From contig CAZIPW010000001.1 of assembly GCA_964541675.1 (NCBI GenBank), forward strand, positions 67,493 to 131,492: a DNA stretch of 64,000 nucleotides, given 5' to 3'. The position numbers and the translations under genes were made by a program. The notes under the pieces are model-generated. The model searched no databases and had not been told where the DNA came from. It saw only the letters and a program-made list of their open reading frames with translations. Shown here in pieces: positions 19,449-64,000 of this stretch; position 1 is the first letter of the stretch; each line of letters opens with the position of its first letter. This DNA is from an uncultured Verrucomicrobiota bacterium (GTDB taxonomy: Bacteria > Verrucomicrobiota > Verrucomicrobiia > CAZIPW01).

Positions 19449-20759
19449 GTGGATCCTGCCAAGCCCAAGTCCAAGCGTAAGCCAGAACCGTTTAGTCATG
19501 AGATCGTATACTTTATTGTAAACGGAGGCGGCAGGGAGTGTCACAGAAAAATCTATCCCTCAAGGTTACATGCTCTCGCGCTGGCGATCGGGATTAGGTA
19601 TGGCAATTTGGACGAAAATATACGAAAGGTATATGCGCAAGAGCTTGTCAGTCGTATGTCGGGCTATATTGAGCAATCCTGCGCGCAGGCGGGGGTATCC
19701 GCGGCGGCCTGCAAACGGGTCTTCGCCACAAACGCCGGTCAAGTGGTGGGGATAACCTTTAGGAGAAGATACAAAAATCCCAATTACATGGGTGTTTCTT
19801 CGAAAGAGATCGGGGGCGGGACGCGCATACTGACTAGAAGCGAAAAAGAACTTAACGCCAGCATCTTTGTCATGAAACTCTCTCATACGATCCAGTGGCT
19901 TGTTCAGGACAAGAGAACAAGGCGGGTAATAAGAGATTTTCAAGTGATTGGCAGTCTGAGAACTGATCCAGACAGATTTCCCAGAATAGAGAAGTTGGCG
20001 GCTCCTCAACTTGGAAAATTCATGAAATCGGGCATCCGCGGGATTGACAGGGAGTCTCAACTGCAGGAGGGGCGGTTGGCTTTGTGGGCGGCAGCCCGAG
20101 GGTATGAGGCAAGAAACTTCTCAACCTTTGGCCATTTTGCCAGGGTGGCGCTCGATCACAAATTCTGCAATCTGCTTCGATATAGCCTGGCCGACAAACG
20201 ACGCGTCAACCGTTCTTTGGTGCCAATCGGTGGAAATATCGGGGATTCCTATACGGGCAGTCAGGTCGACAGTGTCTCATACGCCCATTGGGAGGCGCAG
20301 CAGAGCATATACGATGCTGCAGATGAAGAGATTGGTCGCAGAATCAGACACAATGGGTTACCCGCTTTGGGCGTGCTTAGAAGCAAACTCGGAGGGGATG
20401 CCGCCGCGGTCAAGCTTTTCGAGATGTTGGTGCACGGCAACCCCGAAAGAACCGTCAGTGGAGCGGATCTAAACGGCGAGGTGCTCCCTGGAATGTCTCC
20501 GTTTGCCAAATGGCTGCTCTACAAAAAGAATTTCGGCCTAAAAGGGTTTGAGAGGGAGGCCAGATTCCGGGGTGACGGTAATGATGGGACGTTCTGGGAA
20601 AAACTGCCGGAGGCGGATGAATCGAATTTCCCACATCTGAATGAAGGGACGGTAGAGGTGTCGGATAGCCTGCCTGACGCGGCGGAGAAATACCTTGACG
20701 AGTATCATGGTGTGGCGCAAGTGGAGATGGGGGATTATGATGCCGACTCTTGGGAGTAA
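19449..20759 (+). CDS. hypothetical 436-aa protein with an internal sigma-70 region-2-like segment
   Basis: ESQLQEGRLALWAAARGYEARNFSTFGHFARVALDHKFCNLLR resembles sigma70 region 2.2-2.4 (LIQEG.LGL.KA...F...FSTYA.WWIRQAI.R). No clear region-4 HTH was recognised. An AT-rich promoter-like stretch (tatataatatactataaa) lies upstream. Confidence 0.35.
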   Translation: MDPAKPKSKRKPEPFSHEIVYFIVNGGGRECHRKIYPSRLHALALAIGIRYGNLDENIRKVYAQELVSRMSGYIEQSCAQAGVSAAACKRVFATNAGQVVGITFRRRYKNPNYMGVSSKEIGGGTRILTRSEKELNASIFVMKLSHTIQWLVQDKRTRRVIRDFQVIGSLRTDPDRFPRIEKLAAPQLGKFMKSGIRGIDRESQLQEGRLALWAAARGYEARNFSTFGHFARVALDHKFCNLLRYSLADKRRVNRSLVPIGGNIGDSYTGSQVDSVSYAHWEAQQSIYDAADEEIGRRIRHNGLPALGVLRSKLGGDAAAVKLFEMLVHGNPERTVSGADLNGEVLPGMSPFAKWLLYKKNFGLKGFEREARFRGDGNDGTFWEKLPEADESNFPHLNEGTVEVSDSLPDAAEKYLDEYHGVAQVEMGDYDADSWE

Positions 20760-24610: not shown

Positions 24611-27229
24611 CTATGGCAGGTGGTTGATCCAATCGTTGAATCGGTCGCCTTCCTCCCCGTGAAAGAGGTCTTTGTCATCAAAGGGTTCCACGTTTTTGAT
24701 GTCCATCAGGCGCGAGAACCGCAGGCGCCGGAATGTGCCAATGGAATATTCTTTGATCGGCTCCAGAATTGCGTTGGGATTCATTTGATCGCTGGAAAGG
24801 TCCTTGTATCGGTGGGTGGCCGGTTCATATTCAAGGGACTGCATGAGATAAACCGGCGGATTGTTCGGGGCCCCGATGAAATACTTGGTGGCAGGCAGCT
24901 CGTTATTGATGGCCCGGGTGGGAAGGGCCTCGATGCCATAGACAGTCCACAGCATGGGCATCTCCGCGATGATCATGTAACGCTCATCCTTGTGCTCGTC
25001 CATGAACAGTTTGGCGAATTTGGCCTCCACCATGGGATAGTAAAAGCCCGCGTACTCGCGCGACGAAGCGCACGGGATGGTGTGCCCCACAAAGCCAATC
25101 GCTATGGTGGTGCCCAGAAGCGCATAATAGACCCGTTCCTTGACATAGGCAAAGTAGACAAAGCTCAGTACCGCCAATATGGCAAGACATATCAGGATAT
25201 GCGATAGGTTCCATCCCTTTTCTGGATTATATAGAAAGCCCTGTAGCCAGCCGAAGTAGAACCATACGGCCATGAGGAAGAAAAGGGCGTATCCCAGAAT
25301 TCCTCCTCTGACCCAGCGCGTCCATACGATGCCCGATGTCAGCGCAAAGAGCAGATACAGAGGCAATGTCAGCCTCACGACCATGTAATGGCTCATATCG
25401 AAGGCGTAGCACATTAGCAGCAGGAAATACAGGCCAAAACCCACGAGAAAGGTCCAGAAAACCAGGGTGGGGCGCTCCTCGTCCTCATAGGCCAACCTGG
25501 GGGTTCTCAAAAGCCCTATACTGATCATCAGCCCTGTTAGAGAGAGAGCCAGATACCAGGGCGTCATCTTGGGATCACCGCCATATTGGGACCAATAGTA
25601 AGGCATACTGGAGCAGATAAGAGCCAATAACGCGAAGAAAGGCATGAAAACCCAAGCGGCCCATTTGGGAACATTCGGGGTGGTGGTCAGTATGCGCCAT
25701 ATGGCGCGGCCCAGTACGCCAAAGAGAATAAGAATCAGCAGGGTTTGCGCCAGCGTAACATACCATAATCCATGAAAACACGCGGTGTGATCGCTGATGC
25801 ACAGACAAACTGTCAAGAAACCGGCGCAGCGGATAGAGAGGGCAAGGAAAAGGGTGGAGAAAAGCCACATCGACCATCTGGGCACTGTGCGAATCGTTGC
25901 CAGTATGCCAAAGACGATTACACTCAGTATTCCCAGGAAAGAGACAAGGGGCGCGTTGGGAAACTGCCGGATCCATGCGAAGAAGAAATGCAGCGTCTGC
26001 ATGAAACCATTGTCATAGTAATCCAGACTGAAGGGCTGGGAGAGCCCGACGGAGAAGAGCTCCCAAAAGTCCTTGTCCACCAGGAACGCCCTTTGCTGCC
26101 ATATGACGGGAATCAGCAGCACGGGAACGACCCACATTCCCCATGGAATTATGGCCTTCTTGGATATCGCCATACATGATAGAATGATTGGTGGTATGGG
26201 GACGAGGAAAAGTATCCACAAGAGATTGTGCAAAGTTAACCAGGAAACGATTGTTTCCATGAATATCATTGGGGTAAAGGATATCCTGGAGATTGCCGCC
26301 AGACATGCGAAAGCAAATACCAGCGCAGGGATGGTGCCGATACCCAAAAATATTTTCAGACCAGCATTTGTGTTTTCGGGTGAGGGTTTTTTGTCGGACA
26401 GGCTCCAACCCATGAGGGCGACAATGCCGACAGGAATAAGGAACAGCGCCGACTCATAACGCACCTGGGAGAGCATGATGGCAGTCAGCCAGAGCGCGGA
26501 GAGCATTCTTGAGGTCGGACGCTCCAGATAGTCCATGGCCACCTTGATTGTCAGGAGTATCATGACCAGGTTGAGTATCTCAAACCCTGCCCCGCTGGAC
26601 TGATGCCATATCAGGGGGATACTGGCGAGCAGCCCTACGGATACCAGTCCCGCCGCCTGCCCCGCTATTTTTGAGGCAACCACCCAGGCGAGTACAAACA
26701 TGGCCAGGGTCAGGAAGGAGTTCAGATAGAACGCGTTTTCGACGCGGTATCCAGTCAGATCATGCAGGGTGCAGACCAGGAATGGAAAAAAATTCGGCCT
26801 CTTGTCCACGTATCCTTCGGTAAAGTACACGCCATCCACCTGCTTCGCGTTCGAGACCACATAGACCTCCCTGTGAAAATGCATCATGCGGGAGGTATTG
26901 ATGAGGACAGGTTCGTCTTCCAAAATTTTGAAGTTTTTTTCCTCTCCGAGCTGCATGACCAGCCACGCGCCCAGGATAACTAAGGCAGCCAGCAGATACT
27001 TTCTGTCCCAAAGCCATAGATAGCCTTCCTTTTTCAGAAGGGCGGGGTATGCCCTTATAAGGGAAACCAGCCACAATAGAAAACATCCCAGGATCATCCA
27101 ATAGCCCCAGCAGCGGATCCACAGGATGGCTGTTTGATTGGAGACAAGCTCCAGAGGCCAGGGCCAGCCAATCAGGAGACAGATCGCGGATAGAACGCAA
27201 AAAAGGGTTAGCTTAAGGCCGTTGGACAT
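24611..27229 (-). CDS. very large polytopic membrane protein (872 aa; >20 predicted TM helices plus ~150-aa C-terminal soluble domain), possible GT-C-like glycosyltransferase
   Basis: Hydrophobicity pattern only; no catalytic motif could be confirmed. It lies immediately upstream of the two pseudopilin genes on the same strand. Confidence 0.45.
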   Translation of the reverse strand: MSNGLKLTLFCVLSAICLLIGWPWPLELVSNQTAILWIRCWGYWMILGCFLLWLVSLIRAYPALLKKEGYLWLWDRKYLLAALVILGAWLVMQLGEEKNFKILEDEPVLINTSRMMHFHREVYVVSNAKQVDGVYFTEGYVDKRPNFFPFLVCTLHDLTGYRVENAFYLNSFLTLAMFVLAWVVASKIAGQAAGLVSVGLLASIPLIWHQSSGAGFEILNLVMILLTIKVAMDYLERPTSRMLSALWLTAIMLSQVRYESALFLIPVGIVALMGWSLSDKKPSPENTNAGLKIFLGIGTIPALVFAFACLAAISRISFTPMIFMETIVSWLTLHNLLWILFLVPIPPIILSCMAISKKAIIPWGMWVVPVLLIPVIWQQRAFLVDKDFWELFSVGLSQPFSLDYYDNGFMQTLHFFFAWIRQFPNAPLVSFLGILSVIVFGILATIRTVPRWSMWLFSTLFLALSIRCAGFLTVCLCISDHTACFHGLWYVTLAQTLLILILFGVLGRAIWRILTTTPNVPKWAAWVFMPFFALLALICSSMPYYWSQYGGDPKMTPWYLALSLTGLMISIGLLRTPRLAYEDEERPTLVFWTFLVGFGLYFLLLMCYAFDMSHYMVVRLTLPLYLLFALTSGIVWTRWVRGGILGYALFFLMAVWFYFGWLQGFLYNPEKGWNLSHILICLAILAVLSFVYFAYVKERVYYALLGTTIAIGFVGHTIPCASSREYAGFYYPMVEAKFAKLFMDEHKDERYMIIAEMPMLWTVYGIEALPTRAINNELPATKYFIGAPNNPPVYLMQSLEYEPATHRYKDLSSDQMNPNAILEPIKEYSIGTFRRLRFSRLMDIKNVEPFDDKDLFHGEEGDRFNDWINHLP

Positions 27230-34941: not shown

Positions 34942-34972
34942 CCCTCTCTTTTACTAGCCCATCTCCTTGTTT
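34942..34972. repeat. ~30-nt remnant of the 3' end, plus downstream flank, of a LivK-like binding-protein gene
   Basis: ccctctcttttactagcccatctccttgtt matches cccctcttttaccagcccatctccttgtt (35482-35510), which is the stop region of the first array gene. The element is otherwise isolated. Confidence 0.5.
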
Positions 34973-34986
34973 TTATCCGAGATTAA

Positions 34987-35265
34987 TCAGTCACCTCCAG
35001 CCCGTTTTAAGGCCTCGGCGGCTTCCTCGGGCTTACCCATTCGCTTCGCGCAGGTCGCAAGGGACAGCCACACTCGCCGCGGGGGAGAAGGCTCGCGCCT
35101 AACAATCTCCCGATATACCCCATAAGCCTCTTCTGGCTCATTATTCCTCAAAAGTTCCTCGGCCTTAGCTATCAAGTAGGAAATGCACTCTTGACGAGAC
35201 ATTTTTGCGGTAATGTGCGAATTGAAGCTATAGTCTTCAGCTCCGTCAGAAAATAAATCTTTCAT
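34987..35265 (-). CDS. small TPR-like hypothetical protein
   Basis: 92-aa ORF with one or two TPR-like helix pairs (EEAYGVYREIV...LSLATCAKRMGKPEEAAEALKRA). Weakly supported. Confidence 0.3.
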   Translation of the reverse strand: MKDLFSDGAEDYSFNSHITAKMSRQECISYLIAKAEELLRNNEPEEAYGVYREIVRREPSPPRRVWLSLATCAKRMGKPEEAAEALKRAGGD

Positions 35266-35489: not shown

Positions 35490-36575
35490 TTACCAGCCCA
35501 TCTCCTTGTTGAGGTCGGCGAAATCGGGCGAGGGTATCGCTCTGCCGTGATCGTATTTTAGAATTTTAAAGGCCATGCGGAAGTTCCGGCTGGGGCCGGG
35601 ATAGATCATGCCCGATGCCCCGCGCCAAGGACTAAGCCCAGTCATTGCTTTTATCAATTCATCAGAGCCGGGTGCCTTGTCGGGAAACTTCTCGAATCCT
35701 TTTATGATTGTCTGCATCTGGTCGTAACCGTAACTGGCATAGAAAGGCGGCTCATGTTTGTATTTTGCCCTGTAGGCTGTGTTAAATGCTTCATCTGGAT
35801 TGCTGTCGCTAATGTAGGATATTCCCTCGGCGATCTTTGGCTCAGGCAAGGCCTCGAAGTACCCTGTTATTCTACAAGTCAATCCCATCTCTTTTGACTG
35901 GCGTAGGATGATCTCCGTTTCCGGCTGGTTCCCCCACACCAATAAAATGTCGGGCTTTGCCTCTTTGACTCTTATGAGCATGGTTCTGAAGTCTTGTACG
36001 GGTACATTATATGTCTCGTGGTAGACGATTGTGAGCGTTTTATCATTTTTTAGGGGCGCGAGGAAATCGGGGACGGCGTAATTGTAGTCTGCCGAGTTCT
36101 CTTGCAGGATTGCAATGCGGCACGCGCTCCACCTCTTGATCATCTTGTATTGGATGGCCGCATAGTCGTCGCAGAAAGGCGCGAGATTGATGGTGTAGTG
36201 ATATTTTTGAGTCCAGTAAAGGTCCCATTCACCGGCCATATGAAGGATCTTTTTTCCTTCCGAGATCGGACAGACCGCCATTGCCGTGGGGCCCCAGATG
36301 CTGCAAATGACATTGACCTTGTCGACATTTGCAAACTTTTGGGCAACAAGAGAAGCCCTTCCAGGCTTGTACTCTGAATCCTCGAAGATCAGCTTGTACT
36401 GATGATGCGTGGGCCCGCATTCGGCCAATGCGTATTGCATACCCTCCCTCATACCTTCTCCAAGAAAGGCGTTCTCTCCGGAGAATGGCAGCACAGCACC
36501 GATCTTAATGACGTCGGCCTGGGCTACGCCCCAAAGCGCGGCGGCCAGCATAAGTGTAAGAAATGTATGCTTCAT
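35490..36575 (-). CDS. LivK-like periplasmic solute-binding protein (Peripla_BP_6 family), array copy 1
   Basis: Signal peptide, then ADVIKIGAVLPFSGENAFLGEGMREG. The pattern aligns with E. coli LivJ (IKVAVVGAMSGP...G...G...AI...N). C-terminus ...FADLNKEMGW. The track ORF extends to 36638. Confidence 0.6.
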   Translation of the reverse strand: MKHTFLTLMLAAALWGVAQADVIKIGAVLPFSGENAFLGEGMREGMQYALAECGPTHHQYKLIFEDSEYKPGRASLVAQKFANVDKVNVICSIWGPTAMAVCPISEGKKILHMAGEWDLYWTQKYHYTINLAPFCDDYAAIQYKMIKRWSACRIAILQENSADYNYAVPDFLAPLKNDKTLTIVYHETYNVPVQDFRTMLIRVKEAKPDILLVWGNQPETEIILRQSKEMGLTCRITGYFEALPEPKIAEGISYISDSNPDEAFNTAYRAKYKHEPPFYASYGYDQMQTIIKGFEKFPDKAPGSDELIKAMTGLSPWRGASGMIYPGPSRNFRMAFKILKYDHGRAIPSPDFADLNKEMGW

Positions 36576-36579
36576 AAAA

Positions 36580-37662
36580 TCACCAGCCCATCTCCTTGTT
36601 GAGATCCGCAAACTCCGGGTCGGGGACAATCTGTCCATCTTTAAATTCTGTCATCCGGTCTCCGATTTTAAGGAGTCTATCGGCCCCAGGCGTTATGTAT
36701 CCTGACGCCCCCTGCCAGGGCTGTAGTTTCCCCATCCGGGTCATGAATTCCTGTGCGGAGGGTTTCCCGTCAAAGCCCTCACAGCTTTTGATAATGGCCT
36801 CCATCTGGTCGTAGCCAATGGCGCTTATGGCAACGGGTTTATGATGAAACCGCTTCTCAAAGCGTTCCGCGAAATCAGGGGTCATGTTGTTAACGCATAC
36901 AAAGCGGATTCCCTCCGCCCGTTGGCGATCATGGATGTCTTCCAGGTATCCCGATAGCTTGCAAGTCAGCCCAAGTTCTTTGGCCTGTCGCAGGATAATC
37001 TCAGATTCAGGCAGTACCGCCCAGATTGCAAGGGCGTCAGGTTTTTGCCCGTTGATCTTTGTCAGCAGGGTGCGAAAGTCGCGCACAGGCGCGTTGAATT
37101 TCACGTAGGCTACCAACTGCATCTGTGGGTCTTTTTTGATGGTCTCCCGAAGATGTTCCACCACGGGCGTCCAGTCGGCCAGGTTGGCCTGGATGACGGC
37201 GATCCTATGCGCCCCCATTCTTTTGAACAGGCGCAGTTGAAGGTCCGCAAAATCATCGCTGGGGGAAGTCAGAGTGGCGGTATAATGATTTTTGGTTACC
37301 TGTTCAAGGTTCCAGGTGTTGGCAAAGTGTACGATGTGCTTTTGTTCCGCCAGGGGGCATATGGCATTGGCTTCCATAGTCCACATGGAAACAATGATAT
37401 CCACGTGGTCGATGTCGATGAGCTTCTTGGCGGCCAGAAAGGAACGGCTGGGAATGAACTCGCCATCCTCATAGATAACCGCGTAGGTGTGTTTTGTATG
37501 CGCGTGCTCTTCCACGCAGAGCGTCATGCCTTCTTTCTTTGCGTTTCCGGCCCAGTCGTATTCCCCGCTTAGTGGCAGCACAGCCCCGATCTTGATGACA
37601 TCGGCCTGGGCGGCGCAAAATATGCCCATCGTTGCGATTAATGTTGCGAATGGTATCTTCAT
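36580..37662 (-). CDS. LivK-like periplasmic solute-binding protein, array copy 2
   Basis: MKIPFATLIATMGIFCAAQADVIKIGAVLPLSGEYDWAGNAKKEG...DLNKEMGW. It lies 4 nt from copy 1. Confidence 0.6.
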   Translation of the reverse strand: MKIPFATLIATMGIFCAAQADVIKIGAVLPLSGEYDWAGNAKKEGMTLCVEEHAHTKHTYAVIYEDGEFIPSRSFLAAKKLIDIDHVDIIVSMWTMEANAICPLAEQKHIVHFANTWNLEQVTKNHYTATLTSPSDDFADLQLRLFKRMGAHRIAVIQANLADWTPVVEHLRETIKKDPQMQLVAYVKFNAPVRDFRTLLTKINGQKPDALAIWAVLPESEIILRQAKELGLTCKLSGYLEDIHDRQRAEGIRFVCVNNMTPDFAERFEKRFHHKPVAISAIGYDQMEAIIKSCEGFDGKPSAQEFMTRMGKLQPWQGASGYITPGADRLLKIGDRMTEFKDGQIVPDPEFADLNKEMGW

Positions 37663-37666
37663 AAAT

Positions 37667-38749
37667 TTACCAGCCCATCTCCTTGTTCAAATCTTCAAAT
37701 AATGGATCGGGGACCATCTGTCCGTTCTCGTACTTCACGTATTTGAAAGCCTGGGCAATCATGCGATCGGGACGGGGTGCGCAGATTCCGGAAGCCCCGA
37801 CCCACGGCGGCAGGTGCGTGGCTTTGTCTATCAGCGCCAGCCCGTCTGGCTTATGGTCAAAACTTTCGTAGACCTTGATAAGGGCCTGCATCTGGTCGTA
37901 GCCCAAGTTGACCCCATAGGCGGGCTCCTTGTGAAAGCGTTCTTTGTAGGCGGCCACCCAGGCTCCCGCGGGATTTGTCGCGCAGAAGAAATGCATTCCT
38001 TCGCCGAGTTTCTTCTCGTTGAGATCCTCGTAGTAGCCGGAGATCCGGTATTTCATCCCCAACTCGCGTGACTGCCGCAGGATGATCTCCGATTCCGGCA
38101 GAAGGGACCATACGACAAGGATGTCTGGACGCTCCTCATTGATCTTGGCCAGCATGGTGCGGAAATCCCGGGTCGGAGAGATGAATTTCTCGTTGGCAAC
38201 AATCTCCAGGGAGGGGTCTTTCCTGATCTCAGCGAGTAGATAAGGGATGGCGTACATCCAGTCAGCGGAGTATTGCCACAGAATCGCCACGCGTTTGCAG
38301 CGCAGGCGTTCTATAATTTTGGTCTGCATGGCCGCCTGAACGTCGCAGGGCTGGGAAATCTTGAATGTATATTTGTGCTTGGGCAGATCGTTGAGATTGT
38401 AATCCTGCGCGAAGTTCGGGATCTTTTTGGCGTCGGCTATGGGCTCCACCGCGGAGAGCTCCACGCTCCAAAGGCTGGTCAGTATATCCACCCTGTCAAT
38501 GTTGATCAGCTTTTGCGCTGCCAGGGACGTTCTTCCCGGGACGAATCCCGTGTCTTCGTATATGACCTTATACTGGTGCTTGGTTTTACCTTCCGCCTCG
38601 GAAAGCGCCATCTGCATACCCTCCTGATTGGCCTTGCCGACAAAGTCGTACTCGCCACTTAGTGGCAAGAGGGCTCCGATCTTGATGACGTCGGCCTGGG
38701 CGGCGCATAGCGCCAGGGTCGCAATGAGTAACGTGAGCGTTCTTTTCAT
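37667..38749 (-). CDS. LivK-like periplasmic solute-binding protein, array copy 3
   Basis: MKRTLTLLIATLALCAAQADVIKIGALLPLSGEYDFVGKANQEG...DLNKEMGW. Confidence 0.6.
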   Translation of the reverse strand: MKRTLTLLIATLALCAAQADVIKIGALLPLSGEYDFVGKANQEGMQMALSEAEGKTKHQYKVIYEDTGFVPGRTSLAAQKLINIDRVDILTSLWSVELSAVEPIADAKKIPNFAQDYNLNDLPKHKYTFKISQPCDVQAAMQTKIIERLRCKRVAILWQYSADWMYAIPYLLAEIRKDPSLEIVANEKFISPTRDFRTMLAKINEERPDILVVWSLLPESEIILRQSRELGMKYRISGYYEDLNEKKLGEGMHFFCATNPAGAWVAAYKERFHKEPAYGVNLGYDQMQALIKVYESFDHKPDGLALIDKATHLPPWVGASGICAPRPDRMIAQAFKYVKYENGQMVPDPLFEDLNKEMGW

Positions 38750-38753
38750 AAAT

Positions 38754-39839
38754 TTACCAACCCATCTCCTTGTTAAGATCGGCGAAATCGGGATCGTCGA
38801 TCATGACGGCGTTGCGGTATCTGACAACCTTAAGCGGTGCGCTGATAACCCTGTCGGAGCGGGGCCTTATGAGTCCACAGGCTCCCATCCAGGGCTTTAG
38901 CTGCGAGGCGGCCCTGATCAACTCCAAAGCAGCGGGTTTGTGATCAAAGCTCTCATAGGCTTTGATGATGGTTGTCATCTGGTCGTAGCCGAAGTTGGTT
39001 CCATAGGCCGGATCGTGTTTGTATTTGGCCCTGTATCTCTCAATCCATTCTCCCGCGTTGTTGGTGAAACAGATAAAGGTTATGCCTTCCGCCAGTTTTT
39101 TGTCCGACATATCCTCGTAGTACCCCGTGATCCGGCAGTTGATCCCTATCTCTTTGGCCTGCCTGAGTATGATTTCCGATTCCGGCATAATCGAGAGAAC
39201 GATGAGGGTGTCGGGGTTGGTCTCCTTGATTTTTGCCAACGTAGTGCGGAAATCTCGGACAGGGGAGTTAAAGCTTTCATTAAAGACCAATTTGATCGAT
39301 GGATCGCCCTTGAGCGCGCTGAGGATGTACGGCACCCCGTACACCCAGTCGGCGGAGTTCTGCCACAGAAGGGCGATGCGCTTGCAACCCCAGCGTTGCG
39401 CCAGTTTGAGGTTGATTTGGGCGTACTCATCGCAGGGGGCCGATAGAGACATGGTATATTTCCACTTCTGGGTCCAGATCAGATCCCAGTCGTTGGCCAT
39501 GTGCGGAATCTTTTTGGCCTCGCACAAGGGTCCCACCGCCGAGGCCTCCGGACCCCACATACTGTTGACGATATCGACTTTATCCACATTGATAAGCTTT
39601 TGGGCGGCCAGAGAGGTCTTGCTGGGCATAAACCCGCAGTCCTCGACTATGAGTTTGTACTCATGTCTGGATTTGCCCTTACATTCATCGAGTGCCATCT
39701 GCATACCATCCAGCGTGGCTTTTCCGGCGAAATCGTACTCGCCACTTAGCGGCAGCACGGCGCCAACTTTGATGACGTCGGCTTGTGCGGCGCACATGAG
39801 CCCCAGGGTTATGACCAATGTTGCGAATGTATTCTTCAT
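38754..39839 (-). CDS. LivK-like periplasmic solute-binding protein, array copy 4
   Basis: MKNTFATLVITLGLMCAAQADVIKVGAVLPLSGEYDFAGKATLDG...DLNKEMGW. The track ORF is extended upstream across the previous gene end. Confidence 0.6.
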   Translation of the reverse strand: MKNTFATLVITLGLMCAAQADVIKVGAVLPLSGEYDFAGKATLDGMQMALDECKGKSRHEYKLIVEDCGFMPSKTSLAAQKLINVDKVDIVNSMWGPEASAVGPLCEAKKIPHMANDWDLIWTQKWKYTMSLSAPCDEYAQINLKLAQRWGCKRIALLWQNSADWVYGVPYILSALKGDPSIKLVFNESFNSPVRDFRTTLAKIKETNPDTLIVLSIMPESEIILRQAKEIGINCRITGYYEDMSDKKLAEGITFICFTNNAGEWIERYRAKYKHDPAYGTNFGYDQMTTIIKAYESFDHKPAALELIRAASQLKPWMGACGLIRPRSDRVISAPLKVVRYRNAVMIDDPDFADLNKEMGW

Positions 39840-39843
39840 AAAT

Positions 39844-40929
39844 TTACCACCCCATCTCCTTGTTGAGGTCGGCGAACTGTGGATCATCAATCATGATGGC
39901 GTTCCGGTATTTGACAATCCAGAGCGGCTGCACCAGCATGCCATCCGCGCGGGGGCGCATGAGTCCGGAAGCCCCCATCCAGACGGGCATCTTTCTGGCG
40001 GCCTGGACCAGTGCCATGCCGTCGGGTTTGTGCTCAAAACCTTCATAAGCATGGATGAGGCTCTCCATCTGGTCATAGCCAAAGTTGGTGCTGTATGCCG
40101 GGTCATGTTTGTACATGGCCTTGTACCTCTTGACCCAGCTCTTCTCGGGGTTGGTAAAGCAGATGAAGGACATCCCTTCACCCAGTTTTTTCTCGGACAG
40201 ATCCTCGTAGTACCCAGTCATTCGGCAGGCAATTCCAAGTTCGCGCGCCTGCCTCAGGATGATTTCCGACTCCGGCAGGATCGACAAAACGATGATAAGA
40301 TCGGGTCTGGCCTCTTTTACTCTCGTTAGAACCGTCCGGAAATCCCTGACGGGGGCGTTGAAGCTCTGGTTGAATACGATGGTGATGCTTGGATCGCTTT
40401 GAAGGGCCTTCTGAACATAGGGAAACCCGTAAATCCAATCGGCGGAGTGCTGCCATAGGAGAGCCACGCGGTGGCACCCCCAACGCTGAACCATCTTTAG
40501 CTGCATTTCTGCGTACAGGTCGCAGGGAGCGGCCAGATCCAGGGTGTATTTGTATTTCTGTACCCATACCAAGTCCCAGTCGTTGGCCATGTGCGGAATT
40601 CTCCTGGCTTCGGCCAGGGGGGCCACCGCCATTGCCCCTGCCCCCCAGATGCTGCAAATACAATCGACTTTGTCGATGTTGAGAAGTTTTTGGGCCGCCA
40701 GAGAGGACTTGCCTGGCTGAAATTCGCCGTCTTCGCAAAAGAGTCTGTATTGATGTCTGGTATTGCCCTGTGCTTCAGTGAGAGCCATCTGCATACCGTC
40801 GAGTTGGGCTTTGCCAACGAAATCGTATTCGCCGGTGAGCGGCAACACCACTCCCACCTTGATGACGTCGGCGTGTGCGGCGCACACCAGCCCTAAAATT
40901 AAGGCCCCTGTGGAGAATATTCCCTTCAT
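39844..40929 (-). CDS. LivK-like periplasmic solute-binding protein, array copy 5
   Basis: MKGIFSTGALILGLVCAAHADVIKVGVVLPLTGEYDFVGKAQLDG...DLNKEMGW. Confidence 0.6.
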   Translation of the reverse strand: MKGIFSTGALILGLVCAAHADVIKVGVVLPLTGEYDFVGKAQLDGMQMALTEAQGNTRHQYRLFCEDGEFQPGKSSLAAQKLLNIDKVDCICSIWGAGAMAVAPLAEARRIPHMANDWDLVWVQKYKYTLDLAAPCDLYAEMQLKMVQRWGCHRVALLWQHSADWIYGFPYVQKALQSDPSITIVFNQSFNAPVRDFRTVLTRVKEARPDLIIVLSILPESEIILRQARELGIACRMTGYYEDLSEKKLGEGMSFICFTNPEKSWVKRYKAMYKHDPAYSTNFGYDQMESLIHAYEGFEHKPDGMALVQAARKMPVWMGASGLMRPRADGMLVQPLWIVKYRNAIMIDDPQFADLNKEMGW

Positions 40930-40933
40930 AAGG

Positions 40934-42013
40934 TTACCACCCCATCTCCTTGTTGAGGTCGGCGAACTGTGGATCGTCGATGAGTTGTCCATTCTTATAC
41001 GTTACCACCTTAAAGGGCATGGTGATCATCCCATTTTTGTGGGGCGTAATGATCCCTGAGGCTCCTACCCAGGAAGGCATAACTTTGGCCCCCCTTACAA
41101 ACTCCTCGGCGCCGGGTTTGTGATCAAACTGCTCACAGTCATGTATAATGGCCGCCATCATATCATAACCGTAGCTGGTGCTGTAAGGAGGTTCTTTATG
41201 GAAACGGGCCTTGTAGCTCTCAAACCATTGACTGGCGGGATTGGTGAAGCAGATGAAAGAGATCCCCTTGACCAGTTTTCTTTCACTGATGTCCTCAAAA
41301 TACCCCGTGATACGGCAGCCGATTCCCAGCTCTCTGGCCTGCCTGAGCACAATTTCCGATTCCGGCAGGATTGTCAGGGAGAAGATCAGATCCGGTTTTT
41401 GCTCGTTGATCTTCATGAGGATGGTCCTAAAATCACGCACGGGTGGATTAAAGGTCTCGCACGCGACAATCGCCATACCGGGCTGTTTCTTTAACTGATC
41501 TATAATATAGGGCATGGTGTATACTGAGAATCCTGAATTCGGGTAAAGAATCGCCACGCGTTTTGTGCCCCAACGGCGCATCATTTTGATAAGAAGAGTG
41601 GCATAGTCGCTGCAGGATTGACTGACGTTAACTGTGTACTTATAACCCTCCACCCATCTAAGCGTCCAGTCGGAAGCCACGTGCGGGATCTTTTTGCTGT
41701 CGCAGATGGGACACACCGCGATCGCCTCATCTCCACCCATGCTGACCAATATATCTGCGTGATCGATGGTTGTAAGCTTCCGCGCGGCAAGCGCGGTGCG
41801 TCCTGGCTTAAGCTCCGTATCTTCGCATATAAGTTTATACCGATGTTTGGTGCTTCCCGCATCGGCAAGCGCCAGTTGCATACCATCAAGGGTTGCCTTT
41901 CCCATGAAGTCATACTCCCCCGTGAGCGGCAATAGCACCCCCACCTTGATGACGTCGGCCTGTGCGGCGGTTGCCAGCAGAGCAAACAGCAGGGTCGGGA
42001 GCAACCTCTTCAT
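40934..42013 (-). CDS. LivK-like periplasmic solute-binding protein, array copy 6
   Basis: MKRLLPTLLFALLATAAQADVIKVGVLLPLTGEYDFMGKATLDG...DLNKEMGW. Confidence 0.6.
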   Translation of the reverse strand: MKRLLPTLLFALLATAAQADVIKVGVLLPLTGEYDFMGKATLDGMQLALADAGSTKHRYKLICEDTELKPGRTALAARKLTTIDHADILVSMGGDEAIAVCPICDSKKIPHVASDWTLRWVEGYKYTVNVSQSCSDYATLLIKMMRRWGTKRVAILYPNSGFSVYTMPYIIDQLKKQPGMAIVACETFNPPVRDFRTILMKINEQKPDLIFSLTILPESEIVLRQARELGIGCRITGYFEDISERKLVKGISFICFTNPASQWFESYKARFHKEPPYSTSYGYDMMAAIIHDCEQFDHKPGAEEFVRGAKVMPSWVGASGIITPHKNGMITMPFKVVTYKNGQLIDDPQFADLNKEMGW

Positions 42014-42020
42014 GCGCGCA

Positions 42021-43244
42021 TTATAGGCCGGGATTGAGCATCCTGCCAAGAAAAAGGATCGAACCGGTACGGTTGTCGCGGATCAGATAGATGAAGGGAT
42101 GGTCGGCACGGAAAACAAATGTTTTCTTGGGCATGACTGGCATACCCATGCACTCCATCATTACCGCCGTGGCCGCCGCCGCTTCGGTGCCTTCCTCATA
42201 GACGTCTATATAGGCCTTGTGGATCACGGCTGAGATGAATAAATCGCGCATACCGTCCATGCCTGAGAAGTCAGCCTCACCCGATATGAAGGCGCGCGTC
42301 ATTCCCAGCGATTCCAGGGCTTCTTTCAGTTGAAAGCGGCCGGTGGACTTGAATTTTGGCAGATAAATATTCACCTGCTCTGGGGACATCTGCGCAATCC
42401 AGGACTCGAGCTTTCGGGAATCAAGCTCTCTTTCAATTTGATTGAATTGGGTGGGATCCTTCGGGAGCAGGATAACCATGGAAGCCGTGCCCCACGCGTA
42501 GGGCAGGCTGATCATTTGAAGTTGTTCGGTCTCCAGATAGGGAACGCGTTCCTCTTCATTCATGAGGCTGACAGAAACGCTTTTGCCTTTCCCCAAGTGA
42601 AAATCTACGGGATGGGTAAGTTCCTTCTGGAAGGGTTTCTTCCAGCCGCCCTTAAAATAGATGGCATTTACCAGAACCATCCTCGTGGACGGGTTGATCA
42701 TACCCGGGGATATCAGGTTTTGTATCTTTTCGTGTGTCTTGTCGCTTACCCAACCGTTGATTTTGACCCCCGTGGGTTCGGCTTGGGTGACGAAATCCGC
42801 CTGGTTTATCTCTGAGTCGAAGTTTTCCTTTATGTTCCGCAGATACTCTGCCAGGAAGGGGTGGTCTTTTTGGGCCCACAGGCCGTTGGCAATCTCAAGC
42901 TCGAGGCCGGGCTGAAGCGATGGAGGCTCATTGGGCGGCGTGAGGGCTTTCGTCAGGGAGCTAAAACTTTTGGGCAGAGCCGCAGGGGTGGCTGCATAGC
43001 GAAGGCCCCCCTTTATTTCCGCGGCAGTCTCTCCTCTGGCTCCCGCGTAGACCATGCCGAGGCAGCTTGAGATGCTGTAGGGCGAGAAAAAGAGATTGCC
43101 GTCCTGCTTGGCCAACCGCTGGTAAAGATCAAAGGCGAACTGGTTGTTGCCTCGGACGAGTGTGGAGGTCTCCTGCGCCATGAGGGGAGTCAAAAGCGCA
43201 CAGTATACCAGTGCGAGAACCACGGGTCGTTTAATGTTTTTCAT
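42021..43244 (-). CDS. secreted serpin (serine protease inhibitor family)
   Basis: Signal peptide; serpin N-terminal helices (NQFAFDLYQRL...NLFFSPYSISSCLGMVYAGARGETAAEI); hinge and reactive-centre loop (EEGTEAAAATAVMMECMGMP); C-terminal FRADHPFIYLIRDNRTGSILFLGRM. Confidence 0.8.
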   Translation of the reverse strand: MKNIKRPVVLALVYCALLTPLMAQETSTLVRGNNQFAFDLYQRLAKQDGNLFFSPYSISSCLGMVYAGARGETAAEIKGGLRYAATPAALPKSFSSLTKALTPPNEPPSLQPGLELEIANGLWAQKDHPFLAEYLRNIKENFDSEINQADFVTQAEPTGVKINGWVSDKTHEKIQNLISPGMINPSTRMVLVNAIYFKGGWKKPFQKELTHPVDFHLGKGKSVSVSLMNEEERVPYLETEQLQMISLPYAWGTASMVILLPKDPTQFNQIERELDSRKLESWIAQMSPEQVNIYLPKFKSTGRFQLKEALESLGMTRAFISGEADFSGMDGMRDLFISAVIHKAYIDVYEEGTEAAAATAVMMECMGMPVMPKKTFVFRADHPFIYLIRDNRTGSILFLGRMLNPGL

Positions 43245-43264: not shown

Positions 43265-44065
43265 CTATGGAATCTTCAGCACCTGGCCGAGTTTGAGATT
43301 CCTCGGGCTGGAGAGCACGTCCTTGTTGGCCTCGTATATCTCCTTCCAGCGGGAAGAGGCGCCATAGAATTTTTTGGCGATCGTTGAAAGGGTATCTCCC
43401 TCCTGTATGGTGTACTGTCTTCCGCTTGCCGCCGACTTGGCCGCGGGTGCCGTCGCAGGGACAGTCTCGCCGATCTTGATCTTGGCTTTGGACTCGGACA
43501 GGATGCCCATGCCGCCGCTGCCGTTGGGGCCGGGACCCTGGGCATCAAGAGCCAGCCGGGCCTGATCGGCTGCTTTGTAATGTTCAATTTCCTCCTGGGC
43601 CTTCTGGAGCTGGGTTTTCAGGGCTGTGTTCTCGGTACGCTCCTTGTCCAGAAGCTCCTTCAAGTCGAGACTGTCCACTTCGCTGCCAAAGGGTCCGGCG
43701 GGGAGACTTCTGGCAAATTCTTTCTTGGCGGTCATGATCAGCTGTTTGACCCGTTCCGCCTGTTCGGTGTTGCCGGAGGTGCGCAGATATTCATGGAAGT
43801 GATAAATGGCCAGTATCGGTTCATTAAAGCGGTTCAAATACAGCAGTCCCACCTCCAGATGGCTCTCGGGAGCCGATTGTCTTCTCTCAATGACGCTTTG
43901 GAACGCCTGTAGGGCCTCGTCCGGGCGTCCTTCGCGCAGGCACTGTTTGCCGCGGCGGAAAGCGCTCTCTTCCTGCTCCGAGAGGAGGGCCCCTGGTCCC
44001 CGTTCGCAGCCGACGACAATAAGTCCGGCAATAACGACGAGTGATAAGATGCCCCAAGCTCTCAT
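43265..44065 (-). CDS. secreted protein with TPR-like N-region, coiled coil and C-terminal LysM peptidoglycan-binding domain
   Basis: Signal/TM N-terminus; C-terminus YTIQEGDTLSTIAKKFYGASSRWKEIYEANKDVLSSPRNLKLGQVLKIP, which is LysM. Confidence 0.65.
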   Translation of the reverse strand: MRAWGILSLVVIAGLIVVGCERGPGALLSEQEESAFRRGKQCLREGRPDEALQAFQSVIERRQSAPESHLEVGLLYLNRFNEPILAIYHFHEYLRTSGNTEQAERVKQLIMTAKKEFARSLPAGPFGSEVDSLDLKELLDKERTENTALKTQLQKAQEEIEHYKAADQARLALDAQGPGPNGSGGMGILSESKAKIKIGETVPATAPAAKSAASGRQYTIQEGDTLSTIAKKFYGASSRWKEIYEANKDVLSSPRNLKLGQVLKIP

Positions 44066-44214: not shown

Positions 44215-46278
44215 ATGTACTGGCTTATCTTTCTGCTCCTGCCTTTCTCTCTGTTCGCGCAAAGGAATCTGACGTCGGATCTCCCAATGGAGTTTGACGG
44301 GGTTAACAATGCCCTGGTCGCGCGCCAGAATGCGACCTTTACCGCCAAAGGAGTGGTGCTCGTTGCCGACGAGATCCGCTACAGCAAGAAAACACAGGAG
44401 GCCGTTGCCACGGGAAACGTAAGACTCAATATAAAAGGCATCCGCATGGTGGCGGCCAAGGCCACCTATAAATCTCCGACAGGCTATTTCACGGCGGAGG
44501 ACTTTCGTCTGGGCTTCTTCCCTGTGATGGTCACGGGAAAGTCGCTGGAGGGTACCGTCAAGGAGATAAAGCTCCACCACAGCATTGTCTACGCCTCGCA
44601 GTCCGGGCGTATCGTTCCCAATGTGTGTTCCGGCGAGATGATATTGCATCCGGAGCAGGAGTCGACCCGGGTTGAATTGATCAATTCGCTGTTGCGGGTG
44701 GGTCCGGCCCCTGTTCTTCCTGTGCCCTACCTGAATGTCAATGTTCCCAAAAACGATGATTCCGATATCCGTATTACGCTGGGAGGCGACGGCGCCTATG
44801 GTTTTTATGCCCGTACCTCCAGCCTGTATCCTGTCAGTGACAGCCTGATGGCCGGTGGAAACCTGGACTACTATAGCCGCCGGGGTGTCATGGCCGGCCC
44901 AGCCTACAACTATCAGAGCCCGGGCGGGAATATCCAGAGCACCTTGAACTCCGGATATATCTACGATGACAATCCGGCCGTTCGCGGTGTTGACATTCGG
45001 GGGCAACCCATTCCGGCTGGTCGTGGATTCGTGGACTTCCGTTACAAACAGGACGCCGGTCCCCTGCAGATAACCGAACAGACCCAGTACTGGAGCGACT
45101 CCGAAGTCCTGCGCGACTTTCGTCCCAATCTGTACAGCCAGCAGCAGGCTCCGGAGTCCTACGCGGAGGCCGTATTGCCACTCACGGACAGCTATCTGAG
45201 CGTCTTTACGCGTTATGATCCCAATAATTTTGATGACGTCCCTGAATCCATGCCGGAAGTGCGTTTCGACCGCATGGCGACTCCTGTCGGCGACACGGGG
45301 GCGTATTGGAGCTATTTCAATTCGGTGGCGCACATTGACGAAAGCCCGCTCTTCTACGATCGCTATGATGGGATACTGACGGTGGAGCGCCCCACGGCGT
45401 TGACCTCCTGGTGGCAGTTCAATCCCGTCGTTGCCACGCGTTACACCTATTGGGATAATACCATAGCCGGTTCCCCCAACAGCTCCTACACGCGGTTACT
45501 CGGTGAATTCGGTTTCGACAGCCAGTGGAGCCTCTACAAAATCTATGACATCAAGAATGAGACCTGGGGCATTGACGGCCTCAAGCATACCATCCAGCCA
45601 ATCATCCAGTACCGCTATATGCCGGCTGCAAGCGCCGGAGCAGGGCAGATTCCCGACATAGAAGGCCGCGTCTTCGATACCAACCTGCGCCCCACCGACT
45701 TTTTTTACATGGCAGACGTGGATAATCTCCAGTCGATGAACTTGATGCGTTTTGGACTCAAACAGGCTCTGCAGACGCGCGATGACACAAAGGGTGACTT
45801 CCCGACCCGTGACCTGATGACACTGGAGTTCTATCAAGACTACAACTTTACCGCCACGCAGAACCACCCGCATTGGGATAGCTTTTATACCCTCGCGGAG
45901 ATCTCGCCGAATGATTGGATTTCGATCGGAATATTCACCCGCATGAGCGTGGAGGACCTTACCTGGCAGGAAGACCGGCTTTATGTCACGCTCAAGGATG
46001 GCGACTACCGCTCGATCAACTTCTCCACTCGCTTCCTTCAGGATAATGACATCAACCAGTATCAGGTCACCTACATTCAGAAGCTGACCGACAGGCTCTC
46101 CGTGGTCGGCACTCTGGCCTACGATTTTGATCTGCACAACTTCACAGATGTCATGATCGCCCTCTCGCAGAGAATGCGCGATGGGTGGACGATAGAGTAC
46201 GGAGTCCAGCGGAGGGTTGACGATACGCGGGACTCGGATACGGGGGTGACCGTGCACTTCCACTGGTCGAGCTATTAG
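44215..46278 (+). CDS. lptD: LPS-assembly protein LptD (OstA family outer-membrane beta-barrel)
   Basis: Signal peptide; OstA-like N-domain (ATFTAKGVVLVADEIRYSKKTQEAVATGNVRL); a long C-terminal region rich in alternating aromatic residues, typical of a large beta-barrel. Confidence 0.6.
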   Translation: MYWLIFLLLPFSLFAQRNLTSDLPMEFDGVNNALVARQNATFTAKGVVLVADEIRYSKKTQEAVATGNVRLNIKGIRMVAAKATYKSPTGYFTAEDFRLGFFPVMVTGKSLEGTVKEIKLHHSIVYASQSGRIVPNVCSGEMILHPEQESTRVELINSLLRVGPAPVLPVPYLNVNVPKNDDSDIRITLGGDGAYGFYARTSSLYPVSDSLMAGGNLDYYSRRGVMAGPAYNYQSPGGNIQSTLNSGYIYDDNPAVRGVDIRGQPIPAGRGFVDFRYKQDAGPLQITEQTQYWSDSEVLRDFRPNLYSQQQAPESYAEAVLPLTDSYLSVFTRYDPNNFDDVPESMPEVRFDRMATPVGDTGAYWSYFNSVAHIDESPLFYDRYDGILTVERPTALTSWWQFNPVVATRYTYWDNTIAGSPNSSYTRLLGEFGFDSQWSLYKIYDIKNETWGIDGLKHTIQPIIQYRYMPAASAGAGQIPDIEGRVFDTNLRPTDFFYMADVDNLQSMNLMRFGLKQALQTRDDTKGDFPTRDLMTLEFYQDYNFTATQNHPHWDSFYTLAEISPNDWISIGIFTRMSVEDLTWQEDRLYVTLKDGDYRSINFSTRFLQDNDINQYQVTYIQKLTDRLSVVGTLAYDFDLHNFTDVMIALSQRMRDGWTIEYGVQRRVDDTRDSDTGVTVHFHWSSY

Positions 46279-61213: not shown

Positions 61214-62308
61214 CTATTGTATTATTTGAGAGCCTTCTTTGGTTACCAAGCGGACACTTGCGGGCGAGAGGAATACACCCTGTGGTGTGCACTCAATGTG
61301 TCCCAGCAGGGAATTGAAATCCCTCTTTTCGAGGAGGACCCTGGCGGCGTCCCGTCCGGTGGGGATGCCTGGGCACTTGGCGTGTTCAAAGCCGTAAACC
61401 ATCAATTTGAGATAGTCATAGGAATTTAGCAGGTCGTTTTGCGGGGCTTCATGTCCATAGGCGGCCCTGTATTTAAGTAGAAACGGGCGCTCAACGGCTC
61501 CCGTCGAAACATAGTAGGATCCGACAAAAGGTGTCCTGTCTCCCACGATATCGAAGGACCAGACGCTTGTGAGAGGAATCTTTGGCTCTTGTTCCCGAAT
61601 CTGCCTGCCCAGGATATCGACCTCCGGCAGGAGTGTCATGATAAACACGGCGTCGGGCTTTGCCTGGCGTATTTTGAGGATGAAGGTCCGGAAATCCCTC
61701 TCACCGGGAATGACCTTGAAGTCGCGTATGAGGGTAATGCCACTGCCAGTCGATTCTTTCTCCATGTCGTCACACGTTTGCTTGCAGGCTTGAAAGACTG
61801 CCTCGACGATCGCCACGCGTTTCCATCCCTTCTCTTTGGCCAGGGACACCCATTGCCTGGCCAGTACTTCCGGAGGAGTGGTATGCACAAAATTGGTTTT
61901 GCCATCGGCAATCGAGGTGTCAAAGGAGTCGTTAAAATGCAAGACACCGGACTTGGCGGCCAGTGGCTTGATAACATTGCCCGCCACGCTGCCGACAGAG
62001 GACAAGGCGCTTACGTGATCCTGGCTGATAAGCTTTTGCGCGGCCAAATTTGTAAGTCGGCCCTGATACTGGTCGTCTTCAAAGATAAATTCATATCTGA
62101 AGCGGGTGGGCTGAGACTGAATATCGCGTATGGCGAGGTCTGCCGCTTCTTTAAAGGTCTTTCCGAGAAAGCTGGAATCTCCGGAGAAGGGTGCTATGAC
62201 GCCGATCTTGATGACCGGTCGGGTATCTCCAGGACCGGAAGCGGCTACCAAGCGAGTCGCTACCAGCAAGCACGACAGCATGAGCAAAACGAGACAGTCT
62301 GTCTTCAT
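61214..62308 (-). CDS. LivK-like periplasmic solute-binding protein (Peripla_BP_6), seventh paralog in window
   Basis: Signal peptide, then PVIKIGVIAPFSGDSSFLGKTFKEAADLAIRDI. It is more divergent than the six array copies. Confidence 0.6.
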   Translation of the reverse strand: MKTDCLVLLMLSCLLVATRLVAASGPGDTRPVIKIGVIAPFSGDSSFLGKTFKEAADLAIRDIQSQPTRFRYEFIFEDDQYQGRLTNLAAQKLISQDHVSALSSVGSVAGNVIKPLAAKSGVLHFNDSFDTSIADGKTNFVHTTPPEVLARQWVSLAKEKGWKRVAIVEAVFQACKQTCDDMEKESTGSGITLIRDFKVIPGERDFRTFILKIRQAKPDAVFIMTLLPEVDILGRQIREQEPKIPLTSVWSFDIVGDRTPFVGSYYVSTGAVERPFLLKYRAAYGHEAPQNDLLNSYDYLKLMVYGFEHAKCPGIPTGRDAARVLLEKRDFNSLLGHIECTPQGVFLSPASVRLVTKEGSQIIQ

Positions 62309-62347
62309 GCCTTCATTCTTCCCAAAGGTACAGGTCTGTCAACGCTG

Positions 62348-63979: not shown

Positions 63980-64000
63980 CAGGTAGTTTCTGACTGTGGG

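Follow-up and report, generated by a model that had tools for sequence, protein, structure and literature searches.

The 64,000-nucleotide (nt) stretch analyzed here (the window) comes from contig CAZIPW010000001.1 of an uncultured Verrucomicrobiota bacterium (assembly GCA_964541675.1, positions 67,493 to 131,492 of the forward strand), and at positions 35490–42013 it holds six consecutive minus-strand genes, arranged head to tail, that encode paralogous periplasmic binding proteins, just as the original prediction had read from the sequence alone. These proteins form a new, lineage-restricted subfamily of a known protein kind, expanded in tandem and with no transporter gene nearby, and we give an even chance to the reading that they are exported, diversified solute receptors feeding a transporter encoded elsewhere.

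The array begins with g6 (40934–42013; precursor of 359 amino acids, aa; match to the Pfam family Peripla_BP_6 at E = 7.2e-29) and continues through g5 (39844–40929; 361 aa; E = 3.1e-29), g4 (38754–39839; 361 aa; E = 5.4e-28; the copy used for the structure model), g3 (37667–38749; 360 aa; E = 8e-27), and g2 (36580–37662; 360 aa; E = 3.6e-27; the most divergent of the six) to its last gene, g1 (35490–36575; 361 aa; E = 5.2e-30). These precursor sizes count from conserved ATG starts reading MK and narrow the 360–380 aa first proposed; the mechanically listed open reading frames (ORFs) of 371–382 aa have their starts within the gene before, where they are read in a different frame from its conserved 3′ end. 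The spacing is likewise more uniform than the 4–8 nt first given, all five internal gaps being exactly 4 nt (TAA or TGA, NTTT, ATG), with a gap of 7 nt between the stop codon of an upstream serpin gene and the ATG of g6. Each of the six genes has an intact, full-length reading frame, the proteins share 42.5–65.9% pairwise amino acid identity, and their mature forms measure approximately 340 aa with isoelectric points of 6.0–7.7. The array is no assembly artifact, since three independent assemblies agree, with 0 mismatches, over the 9.7-kilobase (kb) stretch that contains it, and the guanine-plus-cytosine content of the region shows no anomaly. Given the 4-nt gaps, g1–g6 would be co-transcribed with the serpin gene and a LysM gene upstream of it and are probably translationally coupled. 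A sigma-70-like promoter match on the minus strand at 42020–42049 (TTGGCA-18-TATAAT, 11/12) overlaps the serpin stop codon and ends 6 nt before the g6 ATG, and the same hexamers (TTGGCA, TATAAT) occur in a related locus, L009. Matches of this type number 10 in the region versus 7.3 in shuffled sequences, which is not above expectation and leaves the candidate at g6 as a lead only; it would yield a leaderless or nearly leaderless array transcript.

All six products match Pfam PF13458 (Peripla_BP_6) with 95–106 bits (E = 5e-30 to 8e-27; gathering threshold 31.7 bits) over model positions 2 to approximately 320–342 of 343, with weaker matches to ANF_receptor, and the profile searches reassigned none of them to another family. 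An AlphaFold2 model, built for g4 only and from an alignment of 38 sequences, has a mean predicted local distance difference test score (pLDDT) of 94 and a predicted template modeling score (pTM) of 0.89, and displays the alternation of strands and helices expected of a two-lobe binding protein, with residues 1–20, the signal peptide, forming a low-confidence helix outside the fold. Foldseek comparison of this model with the PDB returned only ABC binding proteins, more than 50 of them at probability 1.00, with template modeling (TM) scores of 0.65–0.80 and identities of approximately 14–21%. The best match is 3td9 (Thermotoga LivK; E = 6.5e-24, TM 0.75), and the others include 4ey3 and 4gnr at a similar TM of ∼0.75, 4eyg, 4evs, the urea-binding UrtA, LivJ, and LivK; searching PDB sequences with a profile led to the same family picture. 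On the evidence of the model, g1–g6 are proteins of the type I (cluster B, Venus-flytrap) periplasmic binding-protein fold. The family and fold first proposed thus hold up, but the label of LivK-like, leucine- or amide-binding proteins does not, the scores against the corresponding NCBIfam models (15–47 bits) falling far below cut-offs of 477–495: g1–g6 reach 30–47 bits with the LivJ/K model PRK15404 (cut-off 477), and the urea models TIGR03407 and TIGR03669 (cut-offs of approximately 493) give 15–18 bits for g3, g4, and g6 and 20–30 bits for g7, a distant seventh paralogue. In tblastn comparisons the array proteins are 20–24% identical to E. coli LivJ and LivK.

The signal peptides, as read directly off the sequence, consist of a positively charged MK start, 12–15 hydrophobic residues, and A-Q/H-A before DVIK. 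The ending AAQADVIK once ascribed to every copy is found in four, with VAQA in g1 and AAHA in g5, and all six proteins would be exported by Sec and cleaved after the A-x-A. A lipoprotein reading of the cysteine at position -4 in four copies was rejected, as the preceding residue is M, F, L, or V instead of G, A, or S, and the cysteine is missing from orthologues.

Pfam searches of the neighboring genes and of every multi-pass membrane ORF of the window found no BPD_transp_2 or ABC_tran domain, a six-frame motif scan of the window found no ORF joining a Walker A motif with LSGGQ, and tblastn with E. coli LivH, LivM, LivG, and LivF found nothing in the window, in its flanks (L014, L017), or in six family loci. 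The absence of livHMGF genes from the window, on which the original prediction had remarked, is therefore borne out by all of these searches. The tblastn search gave strong matches at its positive controls, namely L005, where a proteobacterial relative (29% identical) has livH immediately upstream, and the archaeal locus L020. For approximately 8 kb past each end of the window the genes are secA, lnt, gatCAB, pheT, and similar, with no transporter gene, so that no liv genes of the same operon lie just beyond it, and liv-type genes are absent from approximately 80 kb of the 169-kb host contig. The combination that marks a HAAT-type importer, BPD_transp_2 permeases plus two ABC ATPases in the same locus, was not found at the array, and its operon and flanks hold no gene for a kinase or a methyl-accepting chemotaxis protein. 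The operon is bounded upstream by a divergent, weakly LptD-like gene and downstream by recF and nrdD; the HATPase_c protein nearest to it, a histidine kinase, is encoded at 11296–12990, which is 23 kb off.

The binding pocket was read by aligning the family with E. coli LivJ and LivK and taking the ligand-contact columns of LivJ, which we take to be Tyr18, Leu77-Cys78-Ser79, Ala100-Ala101-Thr102, Tyr150, Tyr202, Glu226, and Phe276; among them, Ser79, Thr102, Tyr202, and Glu226 presumably supply the side chains that anchor the α-amino acid. The aligned positions fall at strand ends of the g4 model, as expected. In LivJ numbering, the family consensus is F/W at 17, W at 78, D-W-D at 100–102, D-W at 149–150, I/L/V at 202, and Y-[Y/F/L]-E-D at 225–228, and the predicted pocket would be both acidic and aromatic (rich in Asp and Glu and in Trp, Phe, and Tyr). 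At the anchor equivalents g1–g6 carry G/S/T at 79, D/N/T at 102, I/L/V/N at 202, and Y/F/L at 226, so that Tyr202 and Glu226 appear to be replaced in all six copies, by hydrophobic or aromatic residues apart from the N at 202, and a branched-chain amino-acid label is unsupported because these two amino-acid anchors are replaced. Pocket-aligned columns are also more variable among the six proteins than the average column, with a mean pairwise identity of 0.345 versus 0.51 (resampling p ∼0.04). Paralogue-specific pocket residues persist in orthologues from other species: g6 and P0007 have G78, T102, and F149-S150 in common, g2 and P0018 share W17, T79, T100, N102, and V202, and g1 and P0011 share L18, E100, and N202. 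Because of this variability and persistence, the diversification of ligand specificity that had been suggested for the array is plausible, and the pattern points to specificities that have been maintained as well as diversified among the paralogues.

The last residues of the proteins behave in the opposite manner. The terminus FADLNKEMGW, earlier called invariant, is present in five of the six copies and reads FEDLNKEMGW in g3. The final 13 residues are 95–100% conserved among paralogues that are otherwise 42–66% identical, and they are specific to the family, since in a profile search that returned 624 proteins only family members align to the profile end, the others reaching no further than about position 351, and none of the solved PDB chains aligns past position 347. 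Homologues in other species keep the motif with synonymous codon differences, and because of this synonymous variation the constraint is placed at the protein level. An alternative origin, in which the invariant end merely preserves a Shine-Dalgarno sequence for the next gene (AAGGAG within the NKE codons), was rejected as the main cause because the motif is also present in g1, which ends the array, and in the single-copy gene of L006, because other species encode it with AACAAAGAG or GAA, and because the AAGGAG element lies 16 nt from the next ATG. In the g4 model, residues 350–358 form a final helix (pLDDT 81–91) that is predicted to be amphipathic, with F352, L355, and M359 on one face. The motif is diagnostic of the family and may act either as a latch within the structure or as the surface on which a shared partner docks.

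Synonymous sites among g1–g6 are saturated (proportion of synonymous differences 0.62–0.80), which limits the use of the ratios of nonsynonymous to synonymous substitution rates (dN/dS) of 0.08–0.18 obtained where these were estimable; the youngest pair, g4 and g5, has a dS of 1.3 and a dN/dS of 0.18. The comparison of identities and dN/dS proposed for the six copies therefore describes old duplicates under constraint. Four of them (g1, g2, g4, and g6) have cross-species orthologues at 69–75% identity (bootstrap 89–100), compared with only 48–66% for the best paralogue at home. The orthologue of g6 is P0007 of L009 (71% identity), that of g2 is P0018 (75%), and that of g1 is P0011 (72%), which is likewise the last copy before recF in L011, each with a bootstrap of 100; g5 is sister to the g4/P0004 pair (bootstrap 90). 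Because orthologues elsewhere are closer than the paralogues at home, the array, as judged from these sequences, is one that was built before these species split and was then maintained with gain and loss of copies, and the relic 3′ end of a binding-protein gene past g1 fits such turnover. The junctions carry a further signal. Identity at third codon positions rises from ∼0.4 to 0.67–0.76 in the last 13 codons, and the NKE codons are AAC-AAG-GAG in all six copies, although in the rest of these genes AAC, AAG, and GAG account for 65%, 46%, and 59% of their respective synonymous pairs, whereas the three copies of L011 use AAC-AAA-GAG throughout. The same codons within a genome and different ones between genomes suggest local homogenization at the junctions by gene conversion or unequal recombination, and such homogenization could also drive unequal crossing-over.

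UvrB of the window is 65–69% identical to proteins of Coraliomargarita, Ruficoccus, Cerasicoccus, and Opitutales metagenome-assembled genomes, with a few others at 74–78%, and on these identities the host is assigned to Opitutae (Verrucomicrobiota), within a lineage that is uncultured and thinly sampled. Close relatives of g4 (E ≤ 1e-60, identity ≥ 43%) number approximately 20 among 5.8 billion proteins, all from peat or humic bog-lake metagenomes, after which identities fall to 27%. The family occurs in none of the GTDB species representatives, whose scan gave only one distant locus; a metagenome scan added only two loci, and the filter-free profile search of 1.84 billion representatives gave the 624 proteins mentioned above at E < 1e-30.

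The gene order at this site records how the array arose. In the window and its three assemblies, the order is TPR-LysM lipoprotein, serpin, six binding-protein genes, a 1-kb gap, recF, and nrdD; L009 has LysM, serpin, and then two binding-protein genes up to the contig end; L006/L007 (GCA_964485305.1) have LysM, one binding-protein gene, recF, and nrdD, with no serpin; and L011, from the Trout Bog hypolimnion, has at least three binding-protein genes followed by recF. Elsewhere, L012 holds three tandem genes, one of the array family between two g7-like ones, and in L004 a single family copy adjoins DoxX. The TPR-LysM lipoprotein itself has 473 homologues across Opitutae, and in more distant lineages its gene stands directly before recF (L023), near recF with no binding-protein gene (L024), or before it with one unrelated gene between (L025); RecF identity to the window is 62% for L006, 60% for L011, 60% for L024, and 48% for L023. 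The copy number at the site thus runs from 0 (L023, L024) through 1 (L006), at least 2 (L009), and at least 3 (L011) to 6 in the window. TPR-LysM with recF directly after it is, on the available gene orders, the ancestral Opitutae arrangement, a housekeeping gene pair into which the binding-protein genes and later the serpin gene were inserted. The serpin and LysM neighbors of the original prediction are both present on the same strand upstream, but the neighborhood is largely positional, and the linkage of the array to LysM appears to be at least partly so. A functional link between array, LysM, and serpin is accordingly weakened by the ancestral LysM-recF order and by the presence of the serpin in only two lineages.

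The first gene of the apparent operon encodes the TPR, coiled-coil, and LysM lipoprotein (43265–44065, minus strand; LysM E = 6.4e-12, weak TPR matches), whose lipobox VVGC is kept in orthologues. It is followed by the co-directional gene for an exported serpin upstream of g6 (42021–43244, minus strand; Pfam Serpin E = 2e-121), which is found at this site only in the window lineage and L009 (L009 2005–3213) and is absent in L006. The serpin hinge, EEGTEAAAAT, is of the canonical inhibitory type, and by our own counting the predicted P1 residue of the window copy is Met. The window lineage and L009 are the two lineages closest to each other, and their serpins have a conserved body with a strongly different reactive loop. 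Downstream of g1 lie a small TPR ORF of 92 aa (34987–35265, minus strand; TPR_14 E = 1.6e-8), called as a gene in two assemblies and absent from L006 and L011, and, beyond this ORF and 539 nt from the end of g1, the relic of a binding-protein 3′ end (34953–34989, minus strand), which includes AACAAGGAGATGGGCTAGTAAAAGAG and has 62% identity over 37 nt, with an exact 18-nt core and a change of TGG to TAG. In L006 and L011 recF starts approximately 40 nt after the last binding-protein gene, compared with the 1-kb gap of the window, and the segment at 34953–35265 would represent inserted DNA with a duplicated gene end at its flank, or else what is left of a seventh copy that has been lost. RNA elements in this gap were considered and set aside, as there is no Rfam or tRNA match anywhere in the window, the gap included. 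A role of the array in anti-phage defense was likewise discarded, the PADLOC models giving no match for g4, g7, the serpin, the LysM protein, or the small TPR ORF.

Other parts of the window hold an 872-aa ORF with approximately 18 predicted membrane-spanning segments (24611–27229, minus strand) and a 436-aa ORF (19449–20759, plus strand), both with no Pfam match at E = 0.001 or better. Divergent from the LysM gene is that of a 687-aa exported protein (44215–46278, plus strand), with a sub-threshold match to LptD_2 (21.5 vs. 22.5 bits); in L023 and L024 an unannotated gene of similar size (690–692 aa) accompanies LysM and recF.

The seventh, divergent paralogue that had been noted near the end of the window is real. 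The gene g7 (61214–62308, minus strand) encodes 364 aa with a Peripla_BP_6 match at E = 7.4e-35 (122 bits), is 22.5–26.2% identical to g1–g6, lacks the C-terminal motif, and lies 39 nt downstream of a gene for a 742-aa TPR protein, which extends past the end of the window. Together, 61214–64000 (minus strand) and L014 2641–11095 make up an envelope-biogenesis-like string of secA, a 124-aa ORF, lnt (apolipoprotein N-acyltransferase), the 742-aa TPR gene, and g7, in which there are no transporter genes. The next tier of matches to the family profile is g7-like and includes fused two- and three-domain binding proteins (P0163–P0173, 680–1188 aa). One such fusion is encoded at the archaeal locus L020 (8001–17893; GCA_964373255.1), in an operon that also contains three other genes for binding proteins and two each for permeases and ATPases, and the relative there is detected by the family profile at E = 1.6e-94. 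Orphan relatives with the W...WD pocket signature adjoin cytochrome oxidase assembly genes at L019 7151–9059 and L022 1625–5953, one of them 4 nt after SURF1 and the other followed by one ORF and then COX15/CtaA, which may be coincidence.

In the mechanism that these results suggest, a single gene inserted between the TPR-LysM lipoprotein gene and recF would have given rise, through old tandem duplications in one small Opitutae lineage, to six coupled genes transcribed with LysM and serpin, whose products would leave the cytoplasm by Sec, lose their signal peptides after the A-x-A, and each close around a different, chemically related small ligand. Because the pocket lacks two of the α-amino-acid anchors of LivJ, this ligand is probably not a branched-chain amino acid; it may, at low confidence, carry an amine or other polar or cationic group. 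The loaded proteins would most likely deliver to one HAAT-type ABC permease and ATPase encoded elsewhere, and the parts that are invariant among paralogues, above all the amphipathic C-terminal helix, would act as shared structural or docking elements. Transport is favored because members of the wider clade are encoded in HAAT operons that carry genes for several binding proteins, as in L020, and because the L005 relative lies beside livH; several receptors per permease are normal for the HAAT-type family. Several points weigh against it. The C-terminal-motif family members have no permease or ATPase gene beside them in six independent contexts (window, L004, L006, L009, L011, and L012), and since none lies beside any member or in the ∼80 kb of host contig, the partner transporter is assumed and not observed. 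The LivJ contacts were transferred through an alignment of ∼20% identity in which a one-residue shift is possible, and the equivalents of Tyr202 and Glu226 are apparently not conserved. Cultured Verrucomicrobia have also been reported to show no growth on amino acids (PMC5615132). As further background, Trout Bog populations appear nitrogen-limited (PMC5615132).

The consistent absence of transporter genes around every family member would be expected if g1–g6 were not transport receptors at all but periplasmic sensors or envelope-associated binders acting through a common non-transporter partner, such as a chemoreceptor, a kinase, or the TPR-LysM lipoprotein, on which the C-terminal helix would dock; this is the main rival explanation, which we hold to be rather doubtful. 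TPR domains often bind C-terminal peptides, and TPR proteins recur around these genes, with TPR-LysM upstream, the small TPR ORF downstream, and the 742-aa protein before g7; a family-specific terminus of 13 residues, 95–100% conserved and constrained at the protein level, would suit such docking, and signaling receptors of the Peripla_BP_6 family are documented, for example BasB/BasT (PMC8050422). However, the LysM-TPR gene is widespread in Opitutae and stands before recF with no binding-protein gene, so that adjacency can be positional, g7 follows a TPR gene yet lacks the motif, and no sensor kinase or chemoreceptor gene is nearby, the nearest histidine kinase being the one 23 kb off. The modeled C-terminal helix, with its pLDDT of 81–91 and hydrophobic face, also resembles a packed structural element more than a free docking tail. 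The bolder version, that the family has left transport and forms a co-expressed receptor panel docked by its C-terminal helices on a non-transporter partner, possibly the TPR domain of the peptidoglycan-anchored TPR-LysM lipoprotein, as an envelope-tethered sensing or capture array, strikes us as distinctly unlikely.

The origin of every member in peat or humic bog-lake metagenomes would also suit periplasmic buffering or sequestration, in which abundant binders hold scarce nitrogen compounds or toxic bog solutes (phenolics, amines, metals) that need not be passed to a transporter. Receptors for lignin-derived aromatic acids and for urea are among the nearest solved structures, the pocket consensus appears acidic and aromatic, and the tight coupling of six copies suggests high and equal expression. 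We nevertheless consider this role very unlikely, as the long-kept paralogue-specific pockets fit specific recognition better than bulk buffering, and we know of no precedent for it in this fold family. A reading of the copies as redundant or decaying duplicates that lack distinct functions, or as an artifact of assembly, is contradicted by the data and barely credible: the relic past g1 does show that copies or pieces are lost, and copy number varies by lineage, but the six frames are intact and full length, dN/dS is 0.08–0.18, orthologues are retained across species, and the array is identical in three assemblies, with a high-confidence model for g4.

Whichever of these roles applies, automatic "branched-chain amino acid transport" labels on the array proteins are not supported, and the analysis sets apart, among type I binding proteins, a small, lineage-restricted subfamily that is marked by a diagnostic C-terminal decapeptide and has a predicted acidic, aromatic pocket. 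Copy numbers of 0, 1, at least 2, at least 3, and 6 at a single conserved site of the chromosome form a clean natural series in which to follow how tandem duplication enlarges a receptor repertoire. Should a shared transporter exist, the six pockets would probably indicate which scarce solutes are important to peat-bog Opitutae; if none exists, binding proteins would have been recruited to a non-transport role.

Among known systems, E. coli LivJ/LivK with LivHMGF belongs to the same Pfam family, has the same two-lobe fold and Sec signal peptides, and illustrates how a single permease can be served by more than one binding protein. The array differs from it in its 20–24% identity, in the lack of a permease or ATPase gene nearby, in the replacement of Tyr202 and Glu226, in the extra invariant C-terminal helix, and in its six tandem copies. 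The archaeal HAAT operon of L020 lies within the profile-detected clade and, like the array, gathers several paralogous binding proteins in one locus, although there the genes are interleaved with those for two BPD_transp_2 permeases and two ABC ATPases, and the proteins resemble g7 and lack the C-terminal motif. The aromatic-acid receptors of Rhodopseudomonas palustris (4ey3, 4eyg, 4evs, and CouP, 4f8j) are among the best structural matches (TM ∼0.75, E ∼1e-22) and come from hosts exposed to plant-derived aromatics, as in peat; they are only ∼20% identical and are annotated as components of ABC transporters, whereas the array has no transporter gene and a pocket predicted to be acidic as well as aromatic. 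The Bug/TTT family of Bordetella and AdpC of R. palustris (PMC8050422) are likewise over-represented extracytoplasmic receptors encoded away from their membrane components, but they have the TctC fold, serve another transporter class, and are dispersed instead of forming a tightly coupled tandem operon. BasB of Halobacterium salinarum (PMC8050422) is a Peripla_BP_6 protein that works through a non-transporter partner, the chemoreceptor BasT; BasB and this transducer have consecutive accession numbers (PMC8050422), whereas the array has no transducer gene nearby.

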